From Chthonomonadales bacterium (lineage in GTDB: Bacteria > Armatimonadota > Chthonomonadetes > Chthonomonadales > Chthonomonadaceae): a stretch of 17,082 bases of DNA. Below the pieces are notes generated by a model that was not told the origin of the DNA, searched no databases, and was given only the letters and a program-made list of their open reading frames with translations. Every line of letters begins with the position of its first letter. Within the stretch, counting starts at the first letter, position 1. The DNA lies in the NCBI GenBank assembly GCA_038217285.1, contig JBBQPO010000124.1, forward strand, positions 1-17,082, read 5' to 3'. Made by a program: the position numbers and the translations under genes. Of this stretch, positions 1-16,456 are shown piece by piece.

Positions 1-53
1 CCAAAGCAGGCATAGGTCTTGCGCCGGAAGTCGGCAAGTGTGCTAAAATCCAT
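1..53 (-). CDS. Transposase N-terminus (partial), MDFSTLADFRRKTYACF
   Basis: Translated by hand from ATG at 53 (minus), preceded by AAAGGAAGG. The LxxFRxxxYxCF pattern resembles the N-termini of NF041680-type DDE transposases as recalled. Only 17 codons are visible. Confidence 0.6.
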   Translation of the reverse strand, partial: MDFSTLADFRRKTYACF

Positions 54-140
54 GTGGGCACCTTCCTTTCTTGTTAACTGAAAGGTACCCAATGGGGCAG
101 CCAAAGTTTATCTTCGGCTGCTCTGTAGTCTAAACGTCAA
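1..140 (-). mobile_element. Left end of an IS element (IS701/IS4-like DDE family) inserted in the methyltransferase gene
   Basis: Candidate terminal repeat GTCTAAACGTCAA (128-140), internal hairpin GCAGCC-N13-GGCTGC (97-121), and an RBS (AGGAAGG) plus ATG reading out of the window. Methylase-like coding resumes abruptly at 142. Confidence 0.65.
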
Positions 141-141
141 T

Positions 142-1946
142 GAAGGAGAGTATGGTCGGGTTTATCTAGCACCCATACATGGTATGGAAGAAACCGCTAT
201 GAGGGCACAACCAAAGTGGAAACCAGATCTCGAAATGCCGGCAAATCCTCGCTGGTTTTCGCCACCGCTTTACGGACTGAAAACCTATGGAGACCTGTTT
301 ACGCCCCGCCAACTTGTAGCATTAACAACATACGCTGACCTCATACCGGAAGCCCGAGAACGTGTAAAACAAGACGCCCGGGAGGCAGGGCTGTGTGATG
401 ACGGGAAAACCCTAAGCGGGAACGGTACTGGTGCGACCGCTTACGCAGATATGGTGAGTATATATCTAGCGTTTTGCCTGGACAAAATGACAGATACGAA
501 CACATGCCTGTGTAGCTGGCAGCTCAACCCGCCGAGGTTGCGCGCAACTTTTGGAAGACAAGCGCTACCGATGGTATGGGACTATGCTGAGGCTAACATA
601 TTCGGCGACGCGGCGGGTGATTTTGGCAGATGCGTACATTCGCTTACTGAAGTCCTGGATCGGCAAGGATTGACTGGGTCAGGGATCGCATTCCAAAAAG
701 ATGCGGCGGTTCCAATTGACGGCAAGAAACGAATTTTCTCTACTGATCCACCCTACTACGACAACATAGGATACGCTGATCTCTCAGATTTCTTCTACGT
801 CTGGATGCGTCGCTCATTGAAGCCTGTCTTCCCTGATCTATTCACTACGCTCACCGTACCCAAAGCTGAGGAATTGGTGGCAACGCCCTATCGTCACGGA
901 GGCAAAGAAAAAGCAGAAGCATTCTTCCTGAATGGTATGACGCAGGCAATGCATTGCATTGCATTGCTGAACAGGCACACCCGGACTTTCCAGTCACGAT
1001 TTACTATGCCTTCAAGCAGTCGGAAACTGACGGCATCAATGGTACAGTAAGTACAGGATGGGACACTTTTCTCGATGCGGTGATACAGGCGGGCCTAGCG
1101 ATCAGCGGTACGTGGCCGATGAGGTCTGAACTCGCGACACGCAATGTTGGGCGTGGTACAAACGCTCTGGCTTCGAGCATCGTCCTGGTCTGCCGTCCCT
1201 TCGCAACGGACGCAAAACAAACTACTCGCCGCGAGTTCGTCACTGCACTCAAGGCTGAATTGCCGGCAGCGCTCGTTAAACTTCAGCGAGGTAATATAGC
1301 TCCGGTAGACCTGGCACAGGCGGCAATCGGGCCAGGCATGGCAGTTTATACGCGATACGCTCGTGTGTTAGATGCAGAGGGTAAACCTATCTCGGTTCGC
1401 GAAGCGCTGGTCCTTATCAATCAAACCCTGGACGAGGCGCTGGCGGAGCAAGAGGGTGACTTCGACTCCGACACGCGCTGGGCGTTGTCGTGGTTCGAGC
1501 AGTCGGGTTTTGCTGAGGGCGAGTATGGCATAGCCGAAACACTCTCCAAGGCTAAGAACACCGGAGTCGCGGGAATGGTGGAGGCGGGCATTGTGGCTTC
1601 CGGGCGAGGTAAGGTGCGCTTGCTTCGACCGGGGGAGTTGCCTGCCGATTGGAACCCGTCTACGGATACACGGCTCTCTGCGTGGGAAATGGTGCATCAA
1701 CTGGTACGTGCGCTGGAGAGTGGTTCAGAACCGGCTGCGGCCGCCCTTGTCGCGAAACTCGGGGCAAAAGCGGATGTCGCGCGGGAACTGGCCTATCGGC
1801 TCTATACGCTCTGTGAGCGCAAGAAGCGTGCGGCAGAGGCGCTTTCGTACAACAGCCTCGTACAGAGTTGGCCAGAGATTGCGCGTCTGTCGCAGGAGAC
1901 CGGCGTAGCCGCCCCCATTCAGATGACGACGGACGACCTGGAGTAA
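142..1946 (+). pseudogene. DUF1156-family N6-adenine DNA methyltransferase, C-terminal part; IS-interrupted and frameshifted
   Basis: Frame 1 from 142 reads EGEYGRVYLAP... into ORF 184-1050, which has DLFTPRQL, FGRQALPMVWDYAE and catalytic TDPPYYD. Homology continues in ORF 954-1946 (VTIYYAFKQ, GTWPMRSE, NALASSIVLVCR, GNIAPVDLAQAAIGPGMA). The N-terminal SAM-binding part is absent from the window. Confidence 0.88.
946..967 (+). repeat. Pentanucleotide tandem repeat GCAAT(GCATT)3GC at the frameshift site
   Basis: Seen directly. Removing one GCATT unit fuses the two ORFs as ...MTQAMHCIAEQAHP... Confidence 0.9.
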
Positions 1947-2002
1947 CTTATGGAGATCAGCAGCCAGGAAAATCTCTATTTGGCGCCTGAGGAGGCATTC
2001 TG

Positions 2003-3364
2003 ATGCTTACTAACCTTCATCTGCGCAACTTCAAGTCGTGGGCCAATACTGGAGACATCGCACTCAAGCCAATCACCGGTTTTTTCGGTGCTAACAGCTC
2101 GGGCAAGACCAGTCTTTTGCAATCCCTACTGTTGCTCAAGCAGACTTCCGAATCAGCGGATCGAGGTCTGATCCTTCAATTCGGGGAGAAGAACAGTCTG
2201 GTCAACCTCGGCGACTTCCGCAGCGTCATCTATGGTCACGCGGTCGAGAACGAGTTGATATTTTCCCTGGATTGGGACCAGAAAAAGCCTATTGTGGCGA
2301 ACGACCTGCGACGAACAGTGCTTCAGAGCCAAAATATCGGCTTTACGACGCATGTGCGAGGCGAGAACGGCAATGGAACTGCCCTGCGGTTGACAGTACC
2401 GGATATGGCGTACCGAGTTGGTAATGGGATTTTTGGCATGCGCCGCAGAACGGAAGGCACAGGTGTATATGACTTATATACAGATAGGACTGGGTTTCAG
2501 TTCTTGCCCCAACGTGCCTTTCCCCTTCATGGTCCCATTAAATGCTATGGTTTCCCCAAAGAGGTAAGGCTCCGTTACATGAATTCCGGCTTTCTTTCGG
2601 ATCTTGAACTGGCCTTTCAGGAGCAACTCGAACAGATCTATTATCTGGGACCGTTACGAGCCAATCCTGAACGCACATACACTTGGTCGGGCGCGCAACC
2701 TTCCGATATGGGGCAGGCAGGGGAGCAGGCTATCCATGCCATCTTATCGTCCCGCGATAAAGGCGAAACCATTTCCAGGGGCAGAGGGCGGTCACGGGTT
2801 ACTTTAGAGGCGTATGTCGCGGAGTGGCTCCAAAAACTGGGGCTGATCGCGGAGTTTCGTGTCGAGCCTATCGCGGAAGGCAGTCAGCTTTTTCAGGTCA
2901 AGGTGCGGAAGGTGAAAGGGGGAACGGAGTCCCTGATAACGGATGTCGGCTTCGGGGTCTCGCAGATTCTTCCGGTCATTGTGCTCTGCTTCTATGTGCC
3001 GGAAGGCTCGACGGTAATCCTGGAACAGCCGGAGATCCATCTGCATCCCGCCGTTCAGGCCAATCTGGCAGATGTGCTGATCGATGCCTACCGGAAACGT
3101 GGCGTACAGATCATCGTGGAGAGCCATAGCGAACATCTCTTACGACGCCTTCAAAGGCGTATCGCAGAAGAGAAACTGAGCAGTGAAGAGGTCGGACTAT
3201 ACTTCTGTGAGGCCGGTGCTAAGGGTTCAACGCTCACGACGCTGGATCTGAACGCTTTTGGAAACATAACGAACTGGCCGGAAGATTTCTTCGGCGATGA
3301 GTTCGGAGAACTGGCTGCCACACAAAACGCAATAATCAAGCGTATGCAGCAAGCCAAGCCATGA
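2003..3364 (+). CDS. ABC-type/AAA_21-like ATPase with C-terminal DUF3696
   Basis: N-terminal LxLxNFKS, Walker A GANSSGKTS, signature-like VGFGVSQ, Walker B VILEQPE, H-loop VESHSEH, C-terminal NWPEDFFG. RBS AGGAGG at 1990-1995. Confidence 0.88.
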   Translation: MLTNLHLRNFKSWANTGDIALKPITGFFGANSSGKTSLLQSLLLLKQTSESADRGLILQFGEKNSLVNLGDFRSVIYGHAVENELIFSLDWDQKKPIVANDLRRTVLQSQNIGFTTHVRGENGNGTALRLTVPDMAYRVGNGIFGMRRRTEGTGVYDLYTDRTGFQFLPQRAFPLHGPIKCYGFPKEVRLRYMNSGFLSDLELAFQEQLEQIYYLGPLRANPERTYTWSGAQPSDMGQAGEQAIHAILSSRDKGETISRGRGRSRVTLEAYVAEWLQKLGLIAEFRVEPIAEGSQLFQVKVRKVKGGTESLITDVGFGVSQILPVIVLCFYVPEGSTVILEQPEIHLHPAVQANLADVLIDAYRKRGVQIIVESHSEHLLRRLQRRIAEEKLSSEEVGLYFCEAGAKGSTLTTLDLNAFGNITNWPEDFFGDEFGELAATQNAIIKRMQQAKP

Positions 3365-3864
3365 AGAAATCCGTGATCATCGATACAAATGTAGCAATCT
3401 TGGCAAACAACCGGTCTTCTGCTACTGACATTGACTGCTTGAATGCCTGCATTTTAGCGCTAACCCAGGCTCGGAAACAGGTAATACTGATGGACGATGC
3501 TTCTCGTATCTTTATCGAATATAGGCGACATCTGTCACATTCCGGGCAACCTGGGGCGGGCGATGCCTTCTTCAAATGGTTATGGAATAATCAGGCGACC
3601 GTGCGGCACTGCCGCCTTATCTCGATCACACCGCTTGAGAGCGATGACGCAGATTTTGAGGAGTTCCCAAAGGACCCCGAACTCGCCACATTCGACCGGA
3701 GCGACCGCAAATTTGTGGCCGTCGCGCTGGCAAGTGGCACCGCACCCCTGATCTTGAATGCGACGGACACCGACTGGTGGATCTACCGCAAAGCGCTGGA
3801 ACGCAATCGAGTGCATGTGCAGTTTTTATGCCCCGATCTCATGCGCGATAAGGATTTTGAGTGA
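3361..3864 (+). CDS. PIN-like domain protein (putative RNase/toxin)
   Basis: N-terminal IIDTNV, then DRSDRKFVAVA and NATDTDW, giving the acidic active-site pattern of PIN folds. ATGA overlap with the ATPase. Confidence 0.75.
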   Translation: MKKSVIIDTNVAILANNRSSATDIDCLNACILALTQARKQVILMDDASRIFIEYRRHLSHSGQPGAGDAFFKWLWNNQATVRHCRLISITPLESDDADFEEFPKDPELATFDRSDRKFVAVALASGTAPLILNATDTDWWIYRKALERNRVHVQFLCPDLMRDKDFE

Positions 3865-6458
3865 TGGCAATTACGAATTACGAGCGTGTCGGCAAAGCGC
3901 TGGAACTTGTTAAGACCGGTCTCGCTCCCTATGTAGAACGTGAACTGGAGTCGCAGCATGGTAAATACTGGATTACGGTGGTCACAGCCAACTGGCGCGA
4001 CGATGTGGCCTGGAATGGTGACAGCGACAATCCGCATCTTGATGCCGCCCTGCTTCTGCGCCTGATGTGGGAGCAGTGGAACGACGTCTTCCGCAAGACA
4101 TTGGGCTACGCGGAGCGCTCCCTGGTAAGCGAGATACGGGATGCGCGCAACAAATGGGCGCACCAGAACTCTTTCTCCTCCGATGACGCCGACCGTGCCC
4201 TCGATTCGATGGCGCGTCTGTTGACTGCCGTCTCCTCGCCCCAGGCCGACGAGGTCGGCAAGATGAAGATGGAACTGCGCCGCGTCATTTTCGACGAGCA
4301 GATGCGCAGCGAGAAGCGCCGCTCGGCAGGCACCGTTATCGAGAGCCAGGTCACCGGTACGCTCAAGCCGTGGCGCGAAGTGGTCAGCCCCCACCGCGAT
4401 GTGGCGAGTGGCCGCTACCAGCAGGCAGAGTTCGCGGCGGATCTCTGGCAGGTGCACATCGGCGAAGGTTCGGACGAGTATCGCAAACCCCCGGAGTTTT
4501 TTCGGCGCACCTATCTGACCGACAGTCTGCGCAGGCTCCTGGTAGATGCTGTCTGCCGGATCGCGGGCGACGGCGGAGACCCGGTCGTACAGCTCCAAAC
4601 GAACTTCGGCGGCGGCAAGACGCACTCTATGCTGGCGCTCTACCACCTGTTTTCCGGCGTTCCCACCCAGGAGCTTGCCGGGGCGGACGCGGTGCTTGCC
4701 GAGGCGGGCGTCGAGAATCTTCCTGAATTGCGGCCGGTGGTGCTGGTCGGAAACAAGATCTCGCCGGGCAACCCGAGCGTGAAGGCGGACGGGACGGTGG
4801 TGCGTACGCTCTGGGGCGAGCTTGCCTGGCAGCTAGGCGGCAGGGCGGCCTTTGACGTCATTCGCGCTGACGATGAGATGGCGACCAGTCCCGGCGACAA
4901 ACTGCGCGAGCTGTTCAATACGTACGGCCCCTGCCTTATACTCATCGACGAGTGGGTCGCCTATGCCCGGCAGCTCCACGATGCCGCCGATCTGCCGGGT
5001 GGAAGCTTCGAGACGCACTTCACCTTTGCTCAGGCGCTGACGGAGTCGGCGAAGCTGGCGAAAAACTGTCTGCTCGTCATTAGTCTGCCCGCATCGGATA
5101 CGTCCGGTTCGCAGCATGCCCGTGCCGATGATGTCGAAGTCGGCGGCGAGCGTGGTCGTGCCGCCCTGGACCGCCTGCGCAATGCGGTTGGGCGCGTGGA
5201 GGCGTCCTGGCGACCTGCGAGCGCGGAAGAGAGCTTCGAGATCGTCCGTCGCCGTCTGTTTGAGCCGATGGTGGAGCAGGAGCAGTTCGTAGCGCGCGAC
5301 ACTGTCGCGCGCGCCTTCTTCGACCTCTACCGAACGCAGCATTCGGAGTTTCCGCCTGAGTGTCATAATTCGGACTACGAGCAGCGCCTCAAGGCGGCCT
5401 ATCCCATTCATCCCGAAGTGTTCGACCGCCTCTATACGGACTGGTCCACCCTGGTGAAGTTTCAGCGTACACGTGGCGTTCTGCGCCTGATGGCGGCCGT
5501 CATTCATAGTCTGTGGGAGAAGGGCGACCGCAACCCGCTCATCATGCCGTCCAACATCCCCATCGATGACCAGCGCGTCCAGTTCGAACTAACCCGCTAT
5601 CTGCCCGAAAACTGGGTTCCTGTCCTGGAAAAAGACGTGGACGGCCCGAACGCGCTGCCGCTACGCCTGGACGGGGATGTGCCGAACTTGGGCAAGTTCG
5701 CGGCCTCGCGGCGCGTGGCGCGGACGGTCTATCTTGGCTCCGCCCCGACTGCGGCGGCAGCCAATCGAGGGCTGGAAGACCGGCGCATCAAGCTGGGCTG
5801 CGTTATGCCCGGCGAATCGCCTGCCGTCTTTGGGGATGCCCTGCGCCGCCTGAGCGCCGCCGCGACCTATCTCTATCAGGACGGGGCGCGCTACTGGTAC
5901 TCGACCCAGCCTACTGTCACCAAACTTGCCGAAGACCTGGCCGAACAACTGAAACGCGATCCCGACCAGGTGACGAAAGAGTTGGATAAGCGCTTGCGGG
6001 CCGACTTGAAGCAACCCGGTGATTTCGTCCGTGTGCATCCGCTGCCACAGTCCGGTCAGGATGTAGCAGACGACCTGGAGGCGCGACTGGTAGTGCTTGG
6101 TCCGGACTATCCCTACAGCAAAGAGCCGGGAAATGCGGCTGAAAAAGCCGCGAAGGAGATACTCCAGAAACGAGGCAGCGCCCCTCGCCTCTTCCAAAAT
6201 GCGCTGGTGTTTCTTGCGGTCGATAAAATACGTCTGCAGGATCTGGACGAAGCGGCTCGGCGCTACCTCGCGTGGGAGAAAATTCTATCGGAACGGTTGA
6301 TACTCTCTTTAGACCCCCATCAGGTCAAACAGGCGGAAACTCAGAAGGCCTCGGCAGACAGCGCCGTCACGGCACGTCTCCCGGAAGCCTATCAGTGGGT
6401 CAACAGCAACGTCAGCGTGGAAGCCAGGGGGGATGTTCGGGGTGGCTGGCGGGTCTAA
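3864..6458 (+). pseudogene. Swt1-like HEPN + DUF499 AAA+ ATPase, C-terminally truncated
   Basis: Start MAITNYERVGKAL (TGATG overlap), HEPN RxxxxH motif RNKWAH, LKPWREVVSPH, EFAADL, Walker A QTNFGGGKTH, Walker B LILIDEW, YPIHPE, FQRTRGVLR. Family-like sequence appears to stop at PEAYQW (6398), followed by 19 residues that are mostly antisense to the neighbouring gene. Confidence 0.82.
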
Positions 6459-6933
6459 ACTGCACTGGAACTGTCGGATGTGTGCCGGGGGTACCGGGGC
6501 GTTGGGAACAGAGCAGGCTGAAACCGACCAGGGCGAGCCCCCAGGCGAGGATCGTCCCGACGTGGAGCAGGGCGACGGGAGGATGCACAGACGCCGCTGT
6601 AAAGACTGGCAAAGCTTCGATCTGCAGGGGCGTAAGGTGTTCTCTGGCTTCGAGGCCAGTCGCCAGGACGCCGCCGGGGACGCGGCGTGGCAGGCTCGCC
6701 GTCTGCACCTGCCCGGAGCGCACCTGTGCGTAGAGCCGGAGGTCGCCGACGCGCCGACGCACTCCGTCCGTCATCACCTGCGAGACAATCACATCGTTGG
6801 GCCCGACCTGCCCGGAAGCGATGCGTCCCAGGAACTCGTTGAACTCCAGCACGGTCACCTCGCCCCGCGCTGTCTGAACAACGATTCCATGCCCCTTTTG
6901 TGCAAATGCCCAGTCTTGCAGCATGGCCCCCAC
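6412..6933 (-). CDS. Hypothetical protein with a single C-proximal transmembrane helix
   Basis: 173-aa ORF co-oriented with the upstream operon. Globular N-terminal part, hydrophobic stretch VALLHVGTILAWGLALVGFSLL, Pro-rich tail. Confidence 0.55.
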   Translation of the reverse strand: MGAMLQDWAFAQKGHGIVVQTARGEVTVLEFNEFLGRIASGQVGPNDVIVSQVMTDGVRRRVGDLRLYAQVRSGQVQTASLPRRVPGGVLATGLEAREHLTPLQIEALPVFTAASVHPPVALLHVGTILAWGLALVGFSLLCSQRPGTPGTHPTVPVQFRPASHPEHPPWLPR

Positions 6934-6994
6934 CCTTTCGAGACTCCGCAGTGCCTACCGCACCGGCGTCTCCCACAGTCTCTTGCCCTATTCC

Positions 6995-7843
6995 TTATCT
7001 CTTTAAGACGACTCCGCTGACCAGATATTCGTCGTCGGCCCCCCAGAATCCCTCCCACCGGGTCGCACCGAGTTCGGTCAGACGCGCTTTCGCGGCCGGG
7101 CCGAAGAGCAGTTCGACCGCATAGCGTAAGCGCACCGCGCCGATCTCCGATTTGGGCAGGCTATAGGGACTGCCCATTCCAATACCCATTTTCAGACCGG
7201 TGCCACAGGCCTTCGAAGCGGCCTCCATGAGCGAAAAGTGCGCCGCAACGCGGACTCGAAGCGCCTCTTCATCGTCATTTTCCGCTCCTGCCAGGAACGC
7301 TTCCGATTCGGTTTCCGACATGAACTGCCGGGCAAAGCGGTGCAGATAGGCGCTGTCTTTACCCGCCTGCCGTAGCCGGGGAAGATGGACCACGTCCACG
7401 CCGATGCCCGCGATGTCGGCGCCATAGGCCGCCAGGACGATATGGGCGTCGCCATCGTTGGTGTTGGAAATGTGGAGATGCTGGTCCTCGTAGCCACGAT
7501 CCATGGCCCAGGCTTCGACATCGCCCTGAAACGCAATGGAGGGCTTGCCCAGCGCGTCGTTCTGCCAGTGAAGATCGTCCGGGGCATGCAGGTTGGGAAA
7601 GCCTTCGGCACGAAACCGTTGGTAGACGGCAGCGCGAGCGGCGAGATGTGTGAGGCCAAATCGGCGGTAGCGGCGCTCCATCTTCGGATACCGATCCAGC
7701 GTTTCTCGCGTATAGCTGATCCAGCCGAGCGTTACCGGCAGATTGGGATTCATCGCCCACTCGACCGCCTCCGAATGCAGCAGCGTCTGCGCCAGGGTGG
7801 TCTGCATCAGATGCGCGTTCTTCACTTCTTTTTCGGCTTCCAC
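6995..7843 (-). CDS. 4'-phosphopantetheinyl transferase superfamily protein (two AcpS-like halves)
   Basis: NDALGKP, HLHISNT, GIGVDVV and FSLMEAASKACGTG correspond to the GKP, SxSH, GxD and (F/W)xxKEAxxKAxGxG motifs. Confidence 0.75.
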   Translation of the reverse strand: MEAEKEVKNAHLMQTTLAQTLLHSEAVEWAMNPNLPVTLGWISYTRETLDRYPKMERRYRRFGLTHLAARAAVYQRFRAEGFPNLHAPDDLHWQNDALGKPSIAFQGDVEAWAMDRGYEDQHLHISNTNDGDAHIVLAAYGADIAGIGVDVVHLPRLRQAGKDSAYLHRFARQFMSETESEAFLAGAENDDEEALRVRVAAHFSLMEAASKACGTGLKMGIGMGSPYSLPKSEIGAVRLRYAVELLFGPAAKARLTELGATRWEGFWGADDEYLVSGVVLKR

Positions 7844-7849
7844 GTCGCG

Positions 7850-9592
7850 CTATCTCCCTTCCGTCACGGTCAGCGTCTGTCCCTTCTGCATACGTGTTAT
7901 CGGGCCGAGTGGCTGCACCCGACCGCTGGGCCAGCGTATCTCCACGCGGTCGGCCTGCGCCGCCTTGCCGATTCCGAACAGCAGGCGACGGTCACTGGCG
8001 GAGAGATACGACGAGCCACTGTGTACCTCCTGCGTCTGCGTCTCTGGGCCGACCGTCACGCGCACCCGCGCTCCGTAGGCGTCCCGGTTGCTGGTCGTGC
8101 CGACCAGCAATAGGCGTATCCAGCCGTTGCCGGTGCGGTTCTCGTTGTGCAGCAGCGCTGCCTTGCCGCCGTTGGACATCAGCAGCAGATCCGGACTGCC
8201 GTCGTTGTCTATATCGCCCCAGGCCGCTCCGCGTCCCACGCGCGGCGTCGTCAAGGCCGCGCCGCTCCGAGCGCTGACGTCCGCGAAGCGGCCCTGTCCC
8301 AGATTGCGAAACAGGAGGCCTGGCTCGGCGTAGCTTACGCCCGCGTCTCGTCTGCCGATATCGTCATCGATATGCCCGTTCGTAATGAAGAGATCCGGCC
8401 AGCCGTCGAGGTCGTAGTCCAGGAAGAAGGCTCCGAAGCCCAGATAGGTCTGCGTGGCGTTCCCGACCCCGGACCGCGCCGCCACATCGAGGAACAGGCC
8501 CGACTCATCGCGCCGATAGAGCGTCAACTGTTCGCCCGCGAAGTTGGTGATGAGCACATCAAAAGCGCCGTTGTGCTGCGTATCCGCCGCATCGATGCCC
8601 ATCCCAGCGCGCGAAACGCCCCGCTCGGAGAGCGCGATCCCCGACTCGACCCCAACCTCCCTGAACGTGCCATCGCCCTGATTATGGAACAAAAAGTTCG
8701 GTTCCGTATCGTTGGCGACGAAGAGATCGGGCCAGGAGTCGCCATCGTAATCGCAGGTGACCACTCCCAGGGCTTTGCTATGGGCGTTCAGGATGCCTGC
8801 CTGCCGGGTGACGTCCTGAAACTTGCCGTTGCCCAGATTATGGTAGAGGCGGCACGACTCGCCGGGATAGGACTGCGGACGCGCGTAGGACTTGCTGGTC
8901 CCGTCCACGCTGTAAAAGACGTCGGTCTTCGGCGACCACTGCACATAGTGGCAGACGAACAGGTCGAGCTTCCCATCGCGGTCGTAGTCGATCCATGCCG
9001 CCGAGGTGCTCCACCCGGTATCGGTGATCCCACTTGTCGCCGTCGCGTCTACGAACTTGCGTCCGCCCCGGCCGTTCGAAACGTTGTGAAACAGTCGGCT
9101 CTTGCCGACCGCCGTGAGAAACAGGTCGTCATAGCCGTCGTTGTCGTAGTCTCCGACCGCGACTCCCATTCCGAACATCGGCACGTCCAGGCCGACCTCA
9201 TGCGTCACATCCGTAAACGTGCCATCGTGGTTATTGTGGTAGAGGGCCATTCGGGTGTGCTTGCCGCGCGCCTCCCAGGGTTCGCCATTGATGAGCAGGA
9301 TGTCCTGCCAGCCATCGTTGTCGTAGTCCAGAAAAGCGCAGCCGCTGCCCATGGTTTCCGGCAGCCACTTCTTCCCCACCGCACCGTTATTATGCTGGAA
9401 CCGTAAGCCCGCCTTACCGGTAATATCCGCAAATGTTACCGCCGGAGCCTCCGCCACGGCCCCGCGGTTAGGCGGCGTACCGGCTCGTCCGCCGCATCCC
9501 GCCAGGAGCAGTATCCACGGTAGCATCCGGCAGGCAGCCCACGTTCGCGCAGGGAGCAGAGGGTCATGTTTTGAAAAAGCGGCGCAAATCAT
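7850..9592 (-). CDS. CRTAC1-family lipoprotein (FG-GAP/VCBS repeats + ASPIC/UnbV domain)
   Basis: Repeated DYDNDG/DYDRDG/DYDGDS Ca-binding loops, ETMGSG, GRGAAWGD, and C-terminal SNRDAYGARV...GSSYLS...LLFGIG...VEIRWPSG. Lipobox LLAG-C. The true start may be the later MLPWILL. Confidence 0.92.
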   Translation of the reverse strand: MICAAFSKHDPLLPARTWAACRMLPWILLLAGCGGRAGTPPNRGAVAEAPAVTFADITGKAGLRFQHNNGAVGKKWLPETMGSGCAFLDYDNDGWQDILLINGEPWEARGKHTRMALYHNNHDGTFTDVTHEVGLDVPMFGMGVAVGDYDNDGYDDLFLTAVGKSRLFHNVSNGRGGRKFVDATATSGITDTGWSTSAAWIDYDRDGKLDLFVCHYVQWSPKTDVFYSVDGTSKSYARPQSYPGESCRLYHNLGNGKFQDVTRQAGILNAHSKALGVVTCDYDGDSWPDLFVANDTEPNFLFHNQGDGTFREVGVESGIALSERGVSRAGMGIDAADTQHNGAFDVLITNFAGEQLTLYRRDESGLFLDVAARSGVGNATQTYLGFGAFFLDYDLDGWPDLFITNGHIDDDIGRRDAGVSYAEPGLLFRNLGQGRFADVSARSGAALTTPRVGRGAAWGDIDNDGSPDLLLMSNGGKAALLHNENRTGNGWIRLLLVGTTSNRDAYGARVRVTVGPETQTQEVHSGSSYLSASDRRLLFGIGKAAQADRVEIRWPSGRVQPLGPITRMQKGQTLTVTEGR

Positions 9593-9619
9593 CGGCGCTC
9601 CCCGGCACCCCCTCCGGCC

Positions 9620-10909
9620 TTATCGACCGAGATGCGTCAGCACGGCGGCGGCGGTACGCTGACCGGAGACAAGCGCTCCGTTCAGAGAACTGGACACCGT
9701 GATCTCGCCGCCAAGAAAGAGGCCCTCGGTATCGGTTTCGGTGGCAGGCAGGCGGTCGAAGATTCCCATCGGCTGGCGAAACTGTGCCCACGGGATCCGA
9801 TAGACCTTGAGGAGCTGCCATTCGTCCGGGTTGGAGTCCTGAAAGTGAGGCGCGATCTCGCCTTTGGCGCGGCGGGCCAGCTCCTCGTCCGGCAGGAGAG
9901 AGTTCCCCAGAACGGACACCGAGAGCAGATATTTGCCCTTGGCCGCATACGAGGGCGCGACGTTCGACATCATGGCGGCGTTGTTGACGAGCGGCTGGCC
10001 CTCGGCATGCGTATTCGGTTCGGCGAAGAGCAGAATCGACTTACTCGCCTTCAGCGGCTTCGGCACGAGAAAGTAGAGACAGGTGACGGAACGATACTCT
10101 GTCGGCAGGCGGAGTCCGGTCAGTCGGGCCGCCGTTTCGCCATCGGTCGCGACGACGACCGCATCGGCCTCGACTGTCTCGCCGCCTTCGAGTCGTATGC
10201 CCGTCGCCCTTCCCTCTTCCCGCAGCAGTTCCACGACAGGACTGTTCAGATGAACGGTATCCGGCGTCAGGTCTTTCGCGATCTGGCGCGGAATGGCGCC
10301 CATCCCCTTTTCCGGGACGGCGGTACGGCCTTCTATGAGCATCTTCCAGATGAAGCCGAACATGCGTACGCTGGTCTGCATACTATAGTCGAGGAATATG
10401 CCGGCGAAGAACGGTCGAATGAAGCGATTGAGGAATTTGTCGGTGAAGCCGTACTCGCGCAGATAGTCTTCCATCGACATGTCGGGGTATTCGGAAATCT
10501 CTTTCAGGCTGACCTTACGAATATCCCGCCGCAGGCGCAGGACATTCATCTTATCCCGCAGGGTTATCAGCGGAGTGAGCGCGGACTCCAGCAGTTGACT
10601 GGGCTGGCGCAGCGGATCGCCCAGACTGTAGCGCTCCCCGCGCCAGAAGACGACCGCTCCGGCATCGAAATACTGAAGCTTGAGCGCTTCCAGGTCGAGC
10701 TCCTGCTGGACAGCGGGATAGGCCGTGAGTAGCACCTGAAAGCCCCGGTCGAGCCGACAGTTCGACACGATGTCTGTACGTACTCGCCCCCCGATCCCAT
10801 CGGATGCCTCGTAGAGATGGGCTTCTACACCCGCCCGTTGCAGCGTTCGGGCGCAACAAAGGCCCGCCAGCCCGCCTCCCACCACGACAACCTTCTGACC
10901 TTCCGCCAT
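9620..10909 (-). CDS. FAD-dependent oxidoreductase (amine oxidase / protoporphyrinogen oxidase-like)
   Basis: VVVVGGGLAGL, EASDGIGGRVRTD, LDRGFQVL, C-terminal FLGGE...SLNGALVSG. Start reassigned to ATG 10909 (MAEGQK) with GGAG upstream. Confidence 0.9.
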   Translation of the reverse strand: MAEGQKVVVVGGGLAGLCCARTLQRAGVEAHLYEASDGIGGRVRTDIVSNCRLDRGFQVLLTAYPAVQQELDLEALKLQYFDAGAVVFWRGERYSLGDPLRQPSQLLESALTPLITLRDKMNVLRLRRDIRKVSLKEISEYPDMSMEDYLREYGFTDKFLNRFIRPFFAGIFLDYSMQTSVRMFGFIWKMLIEGRTAVPEKGMGAIPRQIAKDLTPDTVHLNSPVVELLREEGRATGIRLEGGETVEADAVVVATDGETAARLTGLRLPTEYRSVTCLYFLVPKPLKASKSILLFAEPNTHAEGQPLVNNAAMMSNVAPSYAAKGKYLLSVSVLGNSLLPDEELARRAKGEIAPHFQDSNPDEWQLLKVYRIPWAQFRQPMGIFDRLPATETDTEGLFLGGEITVSSSLNGALVSGQRTAAAVLTHLGR

Positions 10910-10933
10910 TCCACGCTCCACAAGACATATTTT

Positions 10934-11078
10934 GTGACACTCCCCGTGGACTAAAGTCCAGGGGCTTCTAACACTCGTTAGCAACATGCCGGGTGTCAGG
11001 CAGGACAGAACCCGTTTCTCCGAGGGCTACCCCAGGATCCGGCTGTTACCCGTCTGCCCTTCCGCACCTGAATGCCGT
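10934..11078 (-). ncRNA. Stand-alone IS200/IS605 right-end / TnpB omega-RNA-like element
   Basis: Minus strand ends GAAGCCCCTGGACTTTAGTCCACGGGGAGTGTCAC, a subterminal hairpin plus TCAC end motif. It has further stems whose G-U pairs work only on the minus strand, and a possible UGACAC/GUGUCA pseudoknot. No tnpA or tnpB is present in the window. Confidence 0.7.
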
Positions 11079-11083
11079 AGGAG

Positions 11084-11092
11084 AGTATACCA
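11084..11092 (-). promoter_or_regulatory. Extended -10 promoter (TGgTATACT) upstream of the omega-RNA-like element
   Basis: Plus-strand AGTATACCA at 11084-11092. No convincing -35 at 17-bp spacing. Confidence 0.55.
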
Positions 11093-11102
11093 CTCCCACC
11101 GC

Positions 11103-11131
11103 TTGCAATGTCGGGGCAGAGGCGTTACAAT
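11103..11131 (+). promoter_or_regulatory. Sigma70-type promoter of the BolA-like gene
   Basis: TTGCAA-N17-TACAAT, followed by RBS AGGAGG (11141-11146) and ATG at 11153. Confidence 0.7.
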
Positions 11132-11152
11132 ATCGGACAGAGGAGGTTCTCT

Positions 11153-11467
11153 ATGACAACAGAGGAGTTGAGCGCGCTGCAGACGCGCCTGGAAGAGGTT
11201 GTACGGCAGGGTTGGGGCTTACGTGACCCGGACGTTCAGGTGTCCAGCGTGCTGCGAGACGGCAACAAAATCGACATGACGGTGATCTCGGCTCTGTTCT
11301 CCGGTCTGGAGGGCCGGGAACGGGAGGCCTTCTTCTGGCCCGTCTTCGACCCTCTCCCGAAATACGATCTGCTCTATATGACCTACTGCCTTCTGCTCAC
11401 GCCGGAAGAGGCCGTCCGTATGGGCGCTCCCTCCCTCGGCAGAGACAACGCGGACGACTGGGCGTAA
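11153..11467 (+). CDS. BolA-like small protein
   Basis: VISALFSG...ERE...LLTPEE resembles BolA V(I/V)SxxFxG...R...TPEE. Strong RBS supports the start at 11153. Confidence 0.6.
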   Translation: MTTEELSALQTRLEEVVRQGWGLRDPDVQVSSVLRDGNKIDMTVISALFSGLEGREREAFFWPVFDPLPKYDLLYMTYCLLLTPEEAVRMGAPSLGRDNADDWA

Positions 11468-11476
11468 TGACCGATT

Positions 11477-11501
11477 CTGACCCGCTGCAAGCAAGGGTCA
11501 G
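11477..11501. terminator. Possible hairpin between convergent genes
   Basis: CTGACCC-N11-GGGTCAG, with no U-tract. Confidence 0.25.
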
Positions 11502-12556
11502 GGCGTGTCTTTATGGATAAGGAGAGCGGTGGGAACGGTGACGAAGGCGGGGCGGGTTTCGATGTAGGCGTCCTGAGAGGAGGACTGCTGTGTATCGCGG
11601 TAGACGAGTTGGGAGGAGGAGCCGCCGTCCAGGCAGAGCGCGTCGGTGCATTCGGTATGGTGGACGGCGCGGAAGTAACGCTGCAGGCAAGCGGCGACAT
11701 CGGCGAACGTCATCTGCACAGCAATGCCCAGGACCAGATGGCGCGGGCGAGCGCTGCGGCCCGTTCCCTCGACATCGTAGGCGACGAATGTGCGCGGCAG
11801 AGCCCGAGGGCTGACGAGCCGCTCCTGCCGGTCGGTGATGAGAAGGACTCCCTTCGCAATCAGACGGGGTCCACAGGCGACTGCGGAACGCAGATTCCAG
11901 ATTTGGTTGGAGATGGGATTGAGGGGCTGGTTGACGGCATGTACGCTACTGTCGCGGTCGGAAGTAAGCCAGCCGATGCGGGGCGTCCCGGCGGCCGTAA
12001 AGCCCAGCGCCGCCCGCACGAAATGATTGTCGGGGTTGGAAGGCGAGCGCACTTTGCGCCCCGGATTGCGTATCTGCCCATCGGTCATGAGCAGACCCAT
12101 GATCTCTTTACTGTCGCCCTGCGTTTTCCCGAAGAAGCCGCCGTTGATCCCGCCCAGCGCATGTTGCGCAACGCACCACTCCCGAACCGTATGCGCGGCG
12201 CCGACGATAGCGCCGCCCGCCTGTTTTCCTACATTCTCCGCCGCCACATCGACATGGATGCCGGGCGTCCGGAGATCGACGTCGAGTAAGAGCGCATCGG
12301 ACGGTGTGCTTCCTACAAGGGGGCTGCCCTCCGGCACATAGTGGTAGAAGACGCCCTGCGCCACCGTCACGGTTCGCGCGCCCGATGTCGCTGCCTGGCG
12401 ATGGTGCATCCACTGCCACCCGCCGAAGGCCAGTGCAACGCCTAGCAGCGAAGCCAGCGCCGCCGGACGAACACGTCCACGCCGCACGGGGAAGCCGTCG
12501 TGAGGCAGGGAAGGTTCGGAACCTATCGGAGGCCTGCGTGGCGATTCCAGAAACAT
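11498..12556 (-). CDS. Phosphodiester glycosidase (NAGPA/DUF2233-like) with N-terminal membrane anchor
   Basis: GGINGGFF, GPRLI, PRTFVA and ALCLDGGSSSQL motifs. Hydrophobic ALASLLGVALAFGGW near the N-terminus. Confidence 0.85.
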   Translation of the reverse strand: MFLESPRRPPIGSEPSLPHDGFPVRRGRVRPAALASLLGVALAFGGWQWMHHRQAATSGARTVTVAQGVFYHYVPEGSPLVGSTPSDALLLDVDLRTPGIHVDVAAENVGKQAGGAIVGAAHTVREWCVAQHALGGINGGFFGKTQGDSKEIMGLLMTDGQIRNPGRKVRSPSNPDNHFVRAALGFTAAGTPRIGWLTSDRDSSVHAVNQPLNPISNQIWNLRSAVACGPRLIAKGVLLITDRQERLVSPRALPRTFVAYDVEGTGRSARPRHLVLGIAVQMTFADVAACLQRYFRAVHHTECTDALCLDGGSSSQLVYRDTQQSSSQDAYIETRPAFVTVPTALLIHKDTP

Positions 12557-12711
12557 ACGACAACCTCCGGGCAGACACAGAGACGAATCGGCGTCAAGAA
12601 GGTCGCAGCGGAAACTCTCCTTCTGCCTTCCTCGTTATCCATACTTCGGCTCAATTCCTGCTCAACAGGAATTATTCCTGCTGGAATTTGCCGTCCGTAA
12701 ACGAGAGGCTC

Positions 12712-12740
12712 TTGACGCGCGCAAGCAAGCCGCATATAAT
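12712..12740 (+). promoter_or_regulatory. Near-consensus sigma70 promoter
   Basis: TTGACG-N17-TATAAT upstream of the BatA-vWA gene. Confidence 0.8.
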
Positions 12741-12805
12741 GGGCGAACCCGACCGATTCGGGGGGCTGCTATGGTTCTGAAGGCGGAAAGCCCGTCGGAA
12801 GGGAA

Positions 12806-14965
12806 GTGCGAAACGTGAACGGTTTCGGCTTGCTGAATGCGGAGTTATGGCCGTGGCTGCTGGCGTTGGGGGTGCCGATCCTGATTCACCTCCTGACGCG
12901 ACGGACCCACCGGACGGTCATTCTGCCGACGTTTCGCTTCTTGCAGCGATCGCTGGCGCAGCAGTCGCAGGTGTTCAAGTTGCGGCGCTGGCTGCTGCTG
13001 GCCCTACGTCTGGCTCTGGTGCTGTTTCTTGTGCTGACTTTCCTCAAGCCGACCCGGACGGCGCCGCTCGCCGCGAAAAGCGGTCGCCGTGCGCTGGTGG
13101 TCGTCCTGGACCGTTCTCTCTCGATGGCCTATACGCAGGGTGGCGTCGAGTCGCTTGCCCGGGTGCGGAGCGAGGCGACGGCGCTGCTGGACGATCTGCA
13201 CTCCGCAGACGTCGCCGATGTGATTTTGGCCGGGGCCGCGCCACAGGCGGTGCTGCCGAAATTGAGTGGGGATTTCGGTACGTTGCGTCAGGCGGTCAAG
13301 AGCGCCCAGGCCGGTGCGGAGCGCGGGGATATGGCGGCGGCGGTGGCGCAGGCGGTGGAGATGCTGGCGAAGTCCGACGCGCCGGATCGCACACTTGTCC
13401 TGGCCTCCGACTTCCAGCACACCAACTGGGCCGATGTCACCTTCGACAGTCTGCCGCCCGATGTCAAACTGGTCACCGTCAGTTCGGACAGCGGGGAGCG
13501 CGAGAACGCCGCCGTGACCGGCGTGAAGCTGCGCCCCGCTGTCCCGGTCGCCGGGGAGGAAGCCCAGGTCGTGGCCGAAGTGTGGAACGGGTCGCCCCGG
13601 TTTCGCTCCCTGCCCATTACGATAACCTCTGCACGGGAAGAGGGCCCCGCGCCGCCGCCGCAGACAGCCGCGCTGAGCCTGCCGCCCTACACCAGCGGGA
13701 CCGTCAGCTTTCCCGTGACCTTTGCCGAGGCGCGCCGCTATCGGGTCGTGGTCCGGGTTCCCGCCGACGCGCTTCCCGCCGACGATGCCCGGTACCTCGT
13801 CGCCGATCTGCACCACTCGCAGACCGTGGTGCTGCTGACGGACGAGGCGCTGAACGGCAGCCCAACGGGCGCCTATTTCCTCTCGCGCGCTCTGAATCCC
13901 GTTCCGGATCAACCTGGCGGGATTCGTGTCCTGGCCCGCCATGCGACGGCGCTGACGGAGGCCGATCTCAAGACATGCGATGCCGTTCTGCTTGAAGCCG
14001 TGACCACGATGCCCGCCGACCGCATGCCCATGCTGGCGAAGTATGTGGAGAACGGGGGAACGCTGCTGGTCTTCGCGGGCGGGCCGAACTTCATCGGGCA
14101 GATGCAGGCCCTGGGGCGCCTCGGCAAGAACGGCGATGGCCTGCCCTTTCTGCCGCAGTCAGCGCTCGACGTCTCGCAGCGTGGGAAGGGCTATCTGACG
14201 CTGACCGAAGCCCGCTACGACAGCCCGCTGCTAAAGCTGTTCAAGAACCCCGAGGCCGCCGATCTGGGCAAAGTCCATTTCACGCGCCTCTATCTGACGA
14301 CCGAGCCGGACAAACGCGCGGAGGTGCTCCTGAAGTTCGAGGACGGGACGCCCGCCGCCGCCCGCCGCAACTTCGGGGCGGGCAGCATCCTGGTCTGCAA
14401 CTTCTCGACGGCCCCGACTGACAGCGACCTGCCCCGGCAGGAGTTTTTCCCGCCCCTCCTCCATGAGTTCCTGAAGGGCCTGACCGACAAGGGCGGCGAC
14501 CGCCGCGAGTTTTTCCCCGGCGGCTCGGCCTCCACGACCCTGGACGCGGAGCAGGTGCGCGGCAGCATCACCTGCCTGGACCCGAACAGCGAGCCGGAGC
14601 GCGTCCTGGTGGACAGACCGAGCGGCGGCGTGATCGTCGAGCGCGTGGACAGGCTCGGTTTCCATGCCGTCTTCGCGAATGGGCAGTCCGTCGCGACGCT
14701 GGCGGTGAACGCGCACCCGGATGAGAGCGACCTGCGCACGATAGATCCGCGGGAACTGCAGAGCAAGCGCGCGAAACATGCCTCCTACGCCGTCCATGCC
14801 GGGGCAGTCGGGGCAGGCTCCGAACTGGACAGCCTGCGTCACGACCGTCCGCTCTGGCCCTGGTGTCTGCTCGCCGTGCTGCTCTTCCTCCTCCTGGAAC
14901 ACGCCGTCGCCGCGTTCGGTGGGCAGGCGCGCCTCCGCCCCGCGCCACCCGCAGCGAAGTTGTAG
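12806..14965 (+). CDS. BatA N-terminal domain + vWA domain membrane protein
   Basis: LGVPILIHLLTRR...PTFRFL...WLLLALR (BatA double TM), MIDAS VLDRSLSM, VLASDFQ, Ig-like and GATase-like middle region, and C-terminal LWPWCLLAVLLFLLLE TM. Start is GTG 12806 or 12815. Confidence 0.88.
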   Translation: MRNVNGFGLLNAELWPWLLALGVPILIHLLTRRTHRTVILPTFRFLQRSLAQQSQVFKLRRWLLLALRLALVLFLVLTFLKPTRTAPLAAKSGRRALVVVLDRSLSMAYTQGGVESLARVRSEATALLDDLHSADVADVILAGAAPQAVLPKLSGDFGTLRQAVKSAQAGAERGDMAAAVAQAVEMLAKSDAPDRTLVLASDFQHTNWADVTFDSLPPDVKLVTVSSDSGERENAAVTGVKLRPAVPVAGEEAQVVAEVWNGSPRFRSLPITITSAREEGPAPPPQTAALSLPPYTSGTVSFPVTFAEARRYRVVVRVPADALPADDARYLVADLHHSQTVVLLTDEALNGSPTGAYFLSRALNPVPDQPGGIRVLARHATALTEADLKTCDAVLLEAVTTMPADRMPMLAKYVENGGTLLVFAGGPNFIGQMQALGRLGKNGDGLPFLPQSALDVSQRGKGYLTLTEARYDSPLLKLFKNPEAADLGKVHFTRLYLTTEPDKRAEVLLKFEDGTPAAARRNFGAGSILVCNFSTAPTDSDLPRQEFFPPLLHEFLKGLTDKGGDRREFFPGGSASTTLDAEQVRGSITCLDPNSEPERVLVDRPSGGVIVERVDRLGFHAVFANGQSVATLAVNAHPDESDLRTIDPRELQSKRAKHASYAVHAGAVGAGSELDSLRHDRPLWPWCLLAVLLFLLLEHAVAAFGGQARLRPAPPAAKL

Positions 14966-14984
14966 AGGAGCCTTGAAAATGGCC

Positions 14985-15024
14985 AAGTTCCCCCAAGGAC
15001 AACGATGTTGTCCTTGGGGAACTT
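14985..15024. terminator. 18-bp inverted repeat (terminator or operator)
   Basis: AAGTTCC(C)CCAAGGACAAC-GAT-GTTGTCCTTGGGGAACTT, 20 bp after the BatA-vWA stop, followed by an AT-rich run. Confidence 0.6.
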
Positions 15025-15149
15025 ATTTGACAACAAGTCAATATCTATGACATACTCGAATGCAGAAGCCGTGTCAACTCCTCGGTCATTTACACTGATT
15101 TTTTCATGATTTCGAGATCAAATTAACGTCAAGAGGATGGTCAACACCC

Positions 15150-16367
15150 ATGTCAAGCAGGAAGTATGAGACTACACATCCTTGGATGGATTTCAAATTA
15201 GATCTTCAGCGCGCCCCCTACACTTTGTGGATGCTGCTGGGTGAGGCCGTTTCTAAGTGTGAACATATAGCTGGGGTGCCGCTCTCACCTGACTACGCTC
15301 AACGTTTACATGCAATCGATCTTGCTAAAGGCGTATGGGCGACTACAGCAATCGAAGGTAATACCCTCTCGGAAGAAGAGGTCAAGAAGCGCATCGAGGG
15401 TAAATTGCCCCTTCCGCCTTCAAAGGAGTATCTCGGTCAAGAAGTCGATAATATAGTATCGGCATTTAATGTAATAGCAAGGCGTCTCGAAACAGAAGAA
15501 TTTCCGCTTCTTAGCGTTGAACTGATTAAACAATTCAATCGATCTGTTTTGGATAAACTCGAAGTTGCACCGGAGGTAAAACCAGGGGAGGTAAGAGAGT
15601 ATTCAGTAGGGGTAGCACACTACCTGGGTGCTCCTGCGGAAGATTGCGAATATCTTCTGGAAAAGCTATGTGCCTGGTTAAATGAACCTGAATTTTTACC
15701 TGATGGTGAAAATAGCATGATGTATGGGATACTGCGCGCTATTGTAGCTCATCTTTATCTCGCTTGGATACATCCGTTTGGGGATGGAAATGGACGCACA
15801 GCACGACTTATGGAAGTTCAAGTTCTGCTTGCAACTGGAGTTCCGTCACCTGCAGCACATCTTCTTAGTAATCACTACAATCTAACTCGAACAGCATATT
15901 ACCGACAACTGGACGCAAGCAGCAAACCCGGAGTTGGGATTTTACCTTTCGTCCAGTACGCTATCCAGGGTTTCGTAGATGGACTAAAGGAACAGATTCA
16001 TACCATTCGGGAACAACAATGGGAGGTTGCGTGGAGGCAATTCATATTTGATAAATTTTCAGGAATGTCAACTGAAACAGATAAGCGCAGAAGAGATCTA
16101 GCACTTGAACTTACAAAAGCGACCCTGAATGACTATAACGAACTGATACCATTGAACAAGATTCGGCAGGTAAGTGCCACGGTCGCGTTGTTGTATGCTA
16201 ACAAAACATACAGGACGATATTACGCGACATCGACATCCTGAATCACCTTCAACTCATAAAGGTTACCTCAAAAGGAGTAAGGGCAAAAAGAGAGATGAT
16301 CCTACAGTTCCTACCTCGTAAAAGAAATCAGGCGACAACAGATCCCGCCATTAAAGACACTAAGTAG
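15150..16367 (+). CDS. Fic-family AMP-transferase, class II type, with probable C-terminal winged HTH
   Basis: Canonical HPFGDGNGRTAR motif and N-terminal inhibitory motif TTAIEGN. C-terminal ..RTILRDIDILNHLQLI.. is HTH-like. Visibly AT-richer than the flanks. Confidence 0.92.
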   Translation: MSSRKYETTHPWMDFKLDLQRAPYTLWMLLGEAVSKCEHIAGVPLSPDYAQRLHAIDLAKGVWATTAIEGNTLSEEEVKKRIEGKLPLPPSKEYLGQEVDNIVSAFNVIARRLETEEFPLLSVELIKQFNRSVLDKLEVAPEVKPGEVREYSVGVAHYLGAPAEDCEYLLEKLCAWLNEPEFLPDGENSMMYGILRAIVAHLYLAWIHPFGDGNGRTARLMEVQVLLATGVPSPAAHLLSNHYNLTRTAYYRQLDASSKPGVGILPFVQYAIQGFVDGLKEQIHTIREQQWEVAWRQFIFDKFSGMSTETDKRRRDLALELTKATLNDYNELIPLNKIRQVSATVALLYANKTYRTILRDIDILNHLQLIKVTSKGVRAKREMILQFLPRKRNQATTDPAIKDTK

Positions 16368-16456
16368 CCGTTCGGTCAACGCTCGTAGAAATTTCGGGCG
16401 TATTGATCTCGCTGAGTTCGTAGAAATTACGAACATCCAGCGGTTGGCCGCTTAGG

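Follow-up and report, generated by a model that had tools for sequence, protein, structure and literature searches.

Hma systems are built from a helicase (HmaA), a methylase (HmaB), and an ATPase (HmaC), and according to the available portions of the preprint by Payne, Hughes, Fineran and Jackson (bioRxiv 2024, 10.1101/2024.01.29.577857), 931 of 1,485 of them (62.7%) contain embedded genes of varied kinds. Nine Hma-embedded candidates were assayed in that study, and seven of them, including candidate 03 (HEC-03), lowered plaquing in Escherichia coli MG1655 deltaRM. HEC-03 is described there as an ABC ATPase, as opposed to an AAA+ ATPase, paired with a VapC-like PIN protein and embedded in Hma; the tests in E. 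coli used a representative for which the candidate system by itself had been cloned and expressed, and its anti-phage activity required both genes (10.1101/2024.01.29.577857). Judged by titles and the openings of abstracts, no mechanistic or structural study of HEC-03 is apparent among the other papers that a literature search returned, and the remaining defence-related papers that name it look like genome or metagenome surveys. Here, we analyze an ATPase–PIN gene pair located between degraded hmaB and hmaC genes in a stretch of 17,082 nucleotides (nt) of DNA, hereafter the window, from Chthonomonadales bacterium (assembly GCA_038217285.1, contig JBBQPO010000124.1, forward strand).

A second described system that bears on this pair is Menshen, in which, as far as the accessible text of the source goes, NsnB combines an ABC ATPase with a DUF3696 helix and NsnC combines an inactive PIN-like domain with a nuclease (PMC12065111). 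The AlphaFold 3 models reported there show the PIN-like domain of NsnC gripped by a pair of DUF3696 tails. The same source notes a change from DE to EN in the Walker B motif of NsnB (PMC12065111). A link between HEC-03 and Menshen was not found stated: the terms "HEC" and "Hma" do not occur in the accessible text of PMC12065111, and the available parts of the preprint list Menshen only among many ABC ATPase systems.

The pair in the window is, overall, best explained as a member of HEC-03, i.e., as an anti-phage system of two genes, one for an ABC-type ATPase and the other for a small nuclease with a PIN fold, a reading to which we give a probability of roughly 0.85. As a family, the pair is already known, having been named, modelled, and tested at the bench.

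The gene pair belongs to HEC-03

The family was assigned by running the profile models of PADLOC-DB v2 against the proteins of the window. The ATPase matches PDLC04148 (E 5.7e-153, residues 1–450 on profile positions 1–454 of 458), and the PIN protein matches PDLC04147 (E 8.9e-40, residues 4–159 on positions 2–153 of 159), which is its sole PADLOC family match. For the ATPase, the runner-up models are far weaker, namely NsnB (1.2e-67) and PDC-M55A (3.8e-56). The gene order of HEC-03 is also found here, with the ATPase gene first and the PIN gene adjacent to it on the same strand, overlapping it by 4 nt. In its two full-length protein families, its gene order, and its Hma context, the pair differs in nothing of kind from HEC-03 as described; what sets it apart from HEC-03 in general is that the surrounding Hma genes are degraded. 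The component letters are swapped between the two sources, with the ATPase being HEC-03B and the PIN protein HEC-03A in PADLOC-DB, whereas the available text of the preprint has the ATPase as HEC-03A and the PIN protein as HEC-03B. Since both proteins have thousands of relatives (at least 7987 for the ATPase and 1871 for the PIN protein at E ≤ 1e-3), chance is not an issue.

In Pfam, the ATPase matches AAA_15, AAA_21, and a C-terminal DUF3696. Its AlphaFold2 model, built from a 61-sequence alignment, has a mean predicted local distance difference test score (pLDDT) of 89.6 and contains a beta-rich insert at approximately residues 84–161 as well as a C-terminal DUF3696 helix at residues 433–451. 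The best Foldseek matches of this model are PtuA from Septu and retron systems, GajA, Rad50, SMC heads, and an OLD nuclease (E ~1e-10, probability 1.0), and on this structural evidence the ATPase is of the ABC type and not AAA+, in agreement with the preprint (10.1101/2024.01.29.577857). Residues G29, N31, S32, S33, and K35 of the Walker A motif are invariant in all 61 aligned ATPases, as are Q47, S320, Q321, E341, Q342, P343, H375, and H378, and the protein in the window agrees with the other 60 sequences at 60 of their 60 invariant columns and at 67 of 68 conserved columns. The Walker B stretch reads ILEQPE in all 61 sequences, whereas the Thermus OLD nuclease (6p74), the only solved sequence relative of the ATPase, aligns with IIEEPE, so that the E341–Q342 pair (3023–3028) stands opposite two glutamates. 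Judging from the alignment, Q342 in place of the second Glu of OLD is a family-wide trait and not damage. In ABC ATPases, a Glu-to-Gln change at the position of the catalytic Glu stops hydrolysis and permits ATP-driven engagement of the heads.

The AlphaFold2 model of the PIN protein (41 aligned sequences) has a pLDDT of 92.4 and a predicted template modelling (TM) score of 0.88. Its best Foldseek matches in the PDB are all to PIN domains, namely those of AF0591 (1o4w), VapC4, a Mycobacterium toxin–antitoxin complex, Shigella VapC, HARP/PRORP, SMG6, and Nob1, with a best E of 4.7e-3, probabilities up to 0.98, and TM-scores of 0.34–0.57. At E ≤ 1, the Pfam family PIN_3 matches 37 of the 61 family members, with E-values down to 7.6e-5. 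Of the four acidic residues of the putative active site, D8 is Asp in 60 of 61 sequences, and E53, D115, and D136 are invariant in all 61; the copy in the window matches the other 60 sequences at all 23 of their invariant columns and at 32 of 35 conserved columns. On the strength of the model and the alignment, we accept the 167-aa protein as a PIN protein, its family forming a divergent branch of the PIN superfamily.

The two genes travel together. A scan covering one genome per species yielded 453 loci with a PIN relative, and 80 of them were retained. In 78 of these 80 loci, the gene that immediately precedes the PIN gene, in the same orientation, encodes a homologue of the ATPase; in the other two (L030 and L050) the PIN gene begins within ~80 bases of the contig end, so that the arrangement holds in 78 of 78 assessable loci. 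The gap between the genes, as counted from the analyst's own choice of start codons, is −4 nt in 52 of the 78, +2 in 19, +1 in three, and +5, −16, −1, and +17 once each. For 61 paired sequences, the pairwise identities of the two proteins are correlated (Mantel r 0.586, a value reached by 0 of 2000 permutations); at the level of sequence identities, this is a sign of co-inheritance, not of contact. Twelve plasmid records also carry PIN relatives, 10 of these records being conjugative or mobilizable, and for the example on Azotobacter pAcX50e the partner was confirmed (hhalign probability 99.96). In the phage collection, 16 records were hit, none covering 80% of the ATPase, and HEC-03 was not seen at that sensitivity.

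Much of what the original prediction, an earlier note on this DNA, had said of the locus holds up. It described two coupled open reading frames (ORFs), joined by an ATGA overlap and followed by a TGATG overlap into DUF499, with a strong ribosome-binding site, and the coordinates and the GAGGAGG bear this out. The pair is indeed AT-richer than the DUF499 gene (52–53% against 62% GC), each of the core genes beside it is broken (HmaB by truncation and a frameshift, HmaC by truncation), and, with HmaB and HmaC as its flanks, the pair does sit in the variable slot of a DUF1156/DUF499 system. An ABC-type ATPase next to a PIN-fold protein is likewise what Foldseek and the PADLOC HEC-03 models return; the catalytic motifs that the note called intact retain every column invariant in the other 60 sequences, Q342 being a family trait; and the neighbourhood comparison that it suggested finds the homologous pairs co-conserved. 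Its proposal of an anti-phage module accords with the defence of E. coli by the HEC-03 family, for which both genes are needed (10.1101/2024.01.29.577857). Novelty, however, cannot be claimed for the pair, which the note did not recognise as a named system: it matches an already characterised system that PADLOC-DB v2 and Payne et al. name HEC-03, an outcome that the prediction itself had listed as a refutation.

As a discovery, the pair carries little weight: a standard PADLOC run would label it HEC-03 and its flanks Hma, and the idea of an embedded module, the architecture of an ABC ATPase with a PIN protein, and the hypothesis of a PrrC/PARIS-style back-up are all present in the preprint. 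The locus does provide a clean natural case in which embedded genes have outlasted the system that carried them, in support of an autonomous HEC-03, and the counts show strict ATPase–PIN coupling in mostly Hma-free contexts across phyla. In addition, that the ATPase is homologous to Menshen NsnB offers a testable lead on the architecture of the presumed HEC-03 complex.

Relation to Menshen, Septu, and other systems

The likeness to Menshen lies in the ATPase. The HEC-03 ATPase has the same C-terminal DUF3696 as NsnB, as reflected in the PADLOC runner-up match, and its alignment with an NsnB-type protein from a plasmid runs from end to end (hhalign probability 99.75), this protein itself sitting in the NsnB position of an operon of DUF262, DUF3696, and hypothetical-protein genes; the Menshen-type order is seen in L083 and L084. 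Both systems have a partner with a PIN-type fold and a Walker B motif without the usual DE pair. However, Menshen has NsnA (DUF262/ParB) beside the ATPase, whereas the pair in the window lacks NsnA and has HmaB and HmaC remnants as its neighbours. Furthermore, the PIN protein of HEC-03 is a standalone protein of 167 aa that keeps its acidic set and has no C-terminal effector, whereas the PIN domain of NsnC is described as inactive, and the beta-rich insert of the HEC-03 ATPase is missing from the 387-aa NsnB-type protein.

No sequence relationship between the partner proteins emerged when the HEC-03 PIN profile was compared with two proteins in the NsnC position (hhalign probabilities 1.0 and 3.6) and also with PDC-M55B, which accompanies a DUF3696 ATPase on a Bacillus plasmid (probability 0.2). 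A 29-column stretch in L084 that resembles the DRKF...DTDWW region is not significant. ATPases of the same clade thus pair with at least three families of partners, namely the HEC-03 PIN proteins, the NsnC-type proteins, and PDC-M55B. One could imagine HEC-03 as a pared-down relative of the Menshen NsnB–NsnC pair, in which a competent PIN protein serves as both anchor and weapon, the insert replaces sensing by NsnA, and the Gln makes the ATPase a slow nucleotide-binding switch, but we hold this idea only tentatively and think it somewhat doubtful.

Among the structural matches to the ATPase, PtuA chains from Septu and retron systems rank first (E 9e-11, probability 1.0), and the arrangement of an ATPase and a nuclease in two genes is shared as well. 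PtuB is an HNH nuclease, however, whereas the partner here has a PIN fold, and the NCBIfam PtuA model matches only marginally (E 1.7e-5, 24 bits against a cut-off of 500). The likeness to PARIS and Gabija is that of the broad AAA_15/AAA_21 group, with partial PADLOC matches to AriA (E 8.7e-26) and GajA (E 2e-11), but these matches are confined to the C-terminal lobe of the ATPase or to the P-loop, and the TOPRIM and helicase partners of those systems are absent. Indeed, neither the partner nor the neighbouring genes gave a PADLOC or Pfam match to the TOPRIM protein AriB, the HNH protein PtuB, or the helicase GajB. With VapBC, the pair shares the PIN fold and the four acidic residues, and the preprint draws the same comparison in its available text (10.1101/2024.01.29.577857). 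However, there is no VapB; the upstream gene encodes an ABC ATPase of 453 aa, and identity to the solved VapC chains is 9–16%.

These comparisons allow us to propose a model for how the pair may work. The ATPase would be an SMC/Rad50/PtuA-like head that carries a beta-rich insert and ends in a DUF3696 helix, and it would form a physical complex with the PIN protein and hold or gate it. A contact between DUF3696 and the PIN protein is proposed because the ATPase aligns with the NsnB-type ATPase and because the tails of NsnB are predicted to grip the PIN-like domain of NsnC; by analogy, the DUF3696 tail of the HEC-03 ATPase would be what holds the PIN protein. A phage cue would then cause a nucleotide-dependent rearrangement of the ATPase that frees or activates the PIN active site (D8, E53, D115, and D136), and the activated PIN protein would cut nucleic acid, most likely RNA, as VapC-type PIN proteins do. 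Phage multiplication would halt as a result, possibly at the expense of the cell, i.e., through abortive infection. From the Walker B motif, we suspect that the ATPase may be an ATP-binding switch with poor hydrolysis.

The Hma carrier and alternative explanations

Both Hma genes that flank the pair are remnants. The upstream one is covered by two ORFs (184..1050 and 954..1946) that correspond to positions 388–647 and 642–958 of the 967 positions of the PADLOC HmaB profile, and tblastn places the homology at 97–963 in frame 1 and at 951–1943 in frame 3, with approximately 360–386 N-terminal residues missing. The GCATT run at the change of frame is the only 5-mer tandem of at least three copies in the window, which suggests that the frameshift arose by slippage. 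The downstream remnant matches positions 2–671 of the 941 positions of the PADLOC HmaC profile; its homology stops at 6401, which corresponds to residue 863 of 1131 in the homologue from locus L016, with ~270 C-terminal residues missing, and the frame stays open to 6458. It keeps a complete Swt1-like HEPN domain at 3894–4235 (Pfam HEPN_Swt1, E 4.2e-41 to 6.5e-40), and with its frame still open, this 865-aa remnant could be expressed. HmaA has no match in the window by PADLOC or tblastn, and an intact set of the three Hma genes is not found there.

Intact versions of the arrangement exist elsewhere. In L016, the order is HmaA, HmaB, ATPase, PIN, and HmaC (1131 aa), and in L002 it is HmaA, an AbiL pair, HmaB, ATPase, PIN, PDC-S09, and HmaC. 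To place the pair with respect to Hma more generally, the 78 pair loci were searched by tblastn with the window's own Hma remnants (at least 150 aa, E ≤ 1e-5). The pair lies between hmaB and hmaC in 12 loci and upstream of hmaB in seven, five of which have hmaA upstream of the pair; one further locus has only hmaC downstream, its upstream side being cut off. No Hma was found in the remaining 58, and in 38 of these the pair is flanked by 5 kb or more on either side. The pair is independent of Hma inasmuch as these 58 of 78 loci show no Hma gene nearby, and as far as gene neighbourhoods tell, it is an autonomous module for which Hma is one of several homes.

These counts bear directly on the suggestion in the original prediction that the pair is a back-up tied to the system around it. 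In such a scheme, an intact Hma would silence the pair, which would fire once Hma is blocked by an inhibitor from a phage, in the manner of PrrC with EcoprrI. The pair does lie inside Hma in 20 of the 78 loci and shares the strand of the hma genes there, and the discussion of the preprint, in its available part, raises a PrrC/PARIS-style back-up for embedded ABC ATPase systems generally (10.1101/2024.01.29.577857). However, no Hma gene was found within reach in 58 of the 78 loci, and some plasmids carry the pair without Hma; the representative cloned alone still defended E. coli (10.1101/2024.01.29.577857); and with Hma broken in the window, a strict guard would be either without a target or permanently unleashed. 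A guard role is thus not required, and we consider it quite unlikely. That the two proteins are integral subunits, forming the nuclease arm of a methylase–helicase–ATPase system, is highly improbable: the PIN stop codon does overlap the hmaC start, and 12 loci share the placement between hmaB and hmaC, but most loci have no Hma, two slots are used (the B–C slot and the one upstream of hmaB), unrelated cassettes occupy the same slots, for example, AbiL and PDC-S09 in L002, and the embedded genes found in 62.7% of the 1,485 Hma systems are varied (10.1101/2024.01.29.577857). For an HEC-03 module, Hma is merely a frequent carrier locus, and the window represents a case in which the carrier has decayed and the cargo is intact.

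The same evidence can be read in terms of a toxin–antitoxin or addiction module, with a VapC-like PIN toxin and the ATPase as its antidote, that stabilises the island or plasmid on which it resides and for which defence is at most a side effect. The VapC-like fold with its conserved acidic set, the tight gene coupling, the occurrence on 12 plasmid records, and the intactness of the pair within a decayed locus would all be in keeping with this, whereas the reported need of both genes for defence fits a sensor–effector pair (10.1101/2024.01.29.577857). The two readings are compatible, and we regard addiction as unlikely to be the better description. The pair could also be dead cargo that decays with its surroundings and is no longer functional, given that both neighbours are pseudogenes and that no promoter-like site was found, but each of its genes has a complete reading frame, neither the ribosome-binding site nor the coupling overlap is damaged, and the conserved columns are kept in the ATPase (60/60 and 67/68) as well as in the PIN protein (23/23 and 32/35), which makes a loss of function very unlikely. 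We therefore prefer membership of a functional HEC-03 family.

Several points nonetheless weigh against a working HEC-03 system in the window. Defence was demonstrated by others in a representative of the family, and the copy in the window would be active by extension from it. The scores behind the PIN assignment are weak: Foldseek gives no match at E ≤ 1e-3, the Pfam scan of the window proteins gives no match above the cut-off for this protein (PIN_3 scores E 0.022 and 16 bits against a cut-off of 27), and a sequence search of the PDB with the PIN profile yields only chance-level SH3 matches (E 0.04 or weaker). Ordinary ATP hydrolysis may be slow or absent, since the aligned OLD ATPase has Glu at the position of Q342, and "ATP gating" may then mean binding only. 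The Mantel correlation could be explained by shared ancestry alone, and the count of 58 Hma-free loci is subject to the fact that divergent or fragmentary Hma genes would escape the tblastn search, one relic having been seen in L013. Finally, a promoter and terminator scan of positions 1–7100 found one promoter-like site against 2.7 expected, on the minus strand, and nothing usable; upstream of the pair, there is no promoter-like site above chance, and because hmaB is broken as well, expression of the pair is unproven.

The surroundings of the pair were sampled for defence genes in the first 10 of the 38 Hma-free loci with at least 5 kb on each side, comprising 99 ORFs within 6 kb at E ≤ 1e-15; six ORFs overlapping the ATPase gene had been excluded beforehand, five of them longer-start versions and one antisense in L008. 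Type I restriction-modification or other defence genes are present in three of the 10 (L005, L007, and L017) and none in seven, a sample too small to address enrichment.

Layout of the window and neighbouring features

The features of the locus are collected in Table 1. The ATG that overlaps the PIN stop codon is in frame with the DUF499/HmaC ORF, which the ORF list opens at the GTG at 3861.

Table 1. Features of the HEC-03 pair and its Hma flanks, in window coordinates.
Feature	Position	Strand	Basis or detail
HmaB (DUF1156 methyltransferase) remnant	97..1946	+	PADLOC HmaB; tblastn with HmaB of L016 and L002
GCATT 5-nt run, site of HmaB frameshift	950..967	+	tblastn segments overlap in different frames
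Shine–Dalgarno-like GAGGAGG	1989..1995	+	7 nt ahead of the ATPase ATG at 2003
HEC-03 ABC ATPase gene	2003..3364	+	453 aa, ATG start; ORF list
Walker A/P-loop, G29–T36 (GANSSGKT)	2087..2110	+	alignment of 61 ATPases
Walker B stretch VILEQPE, V338–E344	3014..3034	+	E341, Q342, and P343 kept in 61/61
DUF3696 C-terminal region, residues 393–438	3179..3316	+	Pfam PF12476, E 1.5e-10
ATGA overlap, ATPase stop/PIN start	3361..3364	+	ATG at 3361, TGA at 3362–3364
HEC-03 PIN-like gene	3361..3864	+	167 aa, ATG start; ORF list
PIN acidic set: D8, E53, D115, D136	3382–3384, 3517–3519, 3703–3705, 3766–3768	+	61-sequence alignment
TGATG overlap, PIN stop/HmaC remnant start	3862..3866	+	TGA at 3862–3864, ATG at 3864–3866
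HmaC remnant, Swt1-like HEPN and DUF499 ATPase	3864..6458	+	Pfam, PADLOC, tblastn

The GC content is 0.529 in the ATPase gene and 0.520 in the PIN gene, compared with 0.621 in the HmaC remnant and 0.637 at positions 6459–15000. Low GC extends beyond the pair, with 50.5% in the 5' part and 58.3% in the 3' part of the HmaB remnant, the 62% of HmaC being like the rest, which suggests that hmaB and the cassette came from a donor of lower GC than hmaC. An exact 15-nt direct repeat, at 3788–3802 and 3892–3906 (104 nt apart), flanks the PIN/hmaC junction, and both copies encode K-A-L-E; it may be due to chance or be the trace of a cassette exchange. A repeat search of positions 1–7100 found no insertion-sequence ends or cassette borders, only short two-copy matches, and scans of the window with Rfam and for transfer RNA (tRNA) genes gave no match.

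Within the HEPN domain of the HmaC remnant, an R-x4-H motif (RNKWAH) can be read, and the HmaC proteins of L016 and L002 share the same N-terminal extension of ~165 residues ahead of the HmaC profile. L002 combines three embedded cassettes in one Hma locus, from the AbiL pair (3756–5647) to PDC-S09 (10468–10920). At the left end of the window, an ORF on the minus strand starts at base 53 and runs out of the window, leaving ~45 bases between it and the HmaB remnant.

Among the loci outside Hma, the pair directly follows the M-S-R genes of a type I restriction-modification system in L017, and in L007 its neighbours are a TIR-like ThsB gene on one side and a type I restriction enzyme gene on the other. 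Scraps of defence genes also occur beside such pairs: directly upstream of the pair in L013 (1785–1952), there is a 56-aa piece that resembles the C-terminus of HmaB, and directly upstream of the pair on an Azotobacter plasmid (L081, 8510–9007), there is a 165-aa fragment of an SNF2 helicase that is DruE-like by PADLOC. It looks as if the cassettes move with bits of former neighbours.

Towards the right end of the window, an island of 45% GC at 15001–16500, within a window of 59% GC, carries a Fic-domain gene (15150..16367, plus strand) with no tRNA gene nearby. Its product matches SoFic in PADLOC (E 1.2e-51) and Fic in Pfam (E 1.5e-14), and the gene may be a second, separately acquired defence-type gene.

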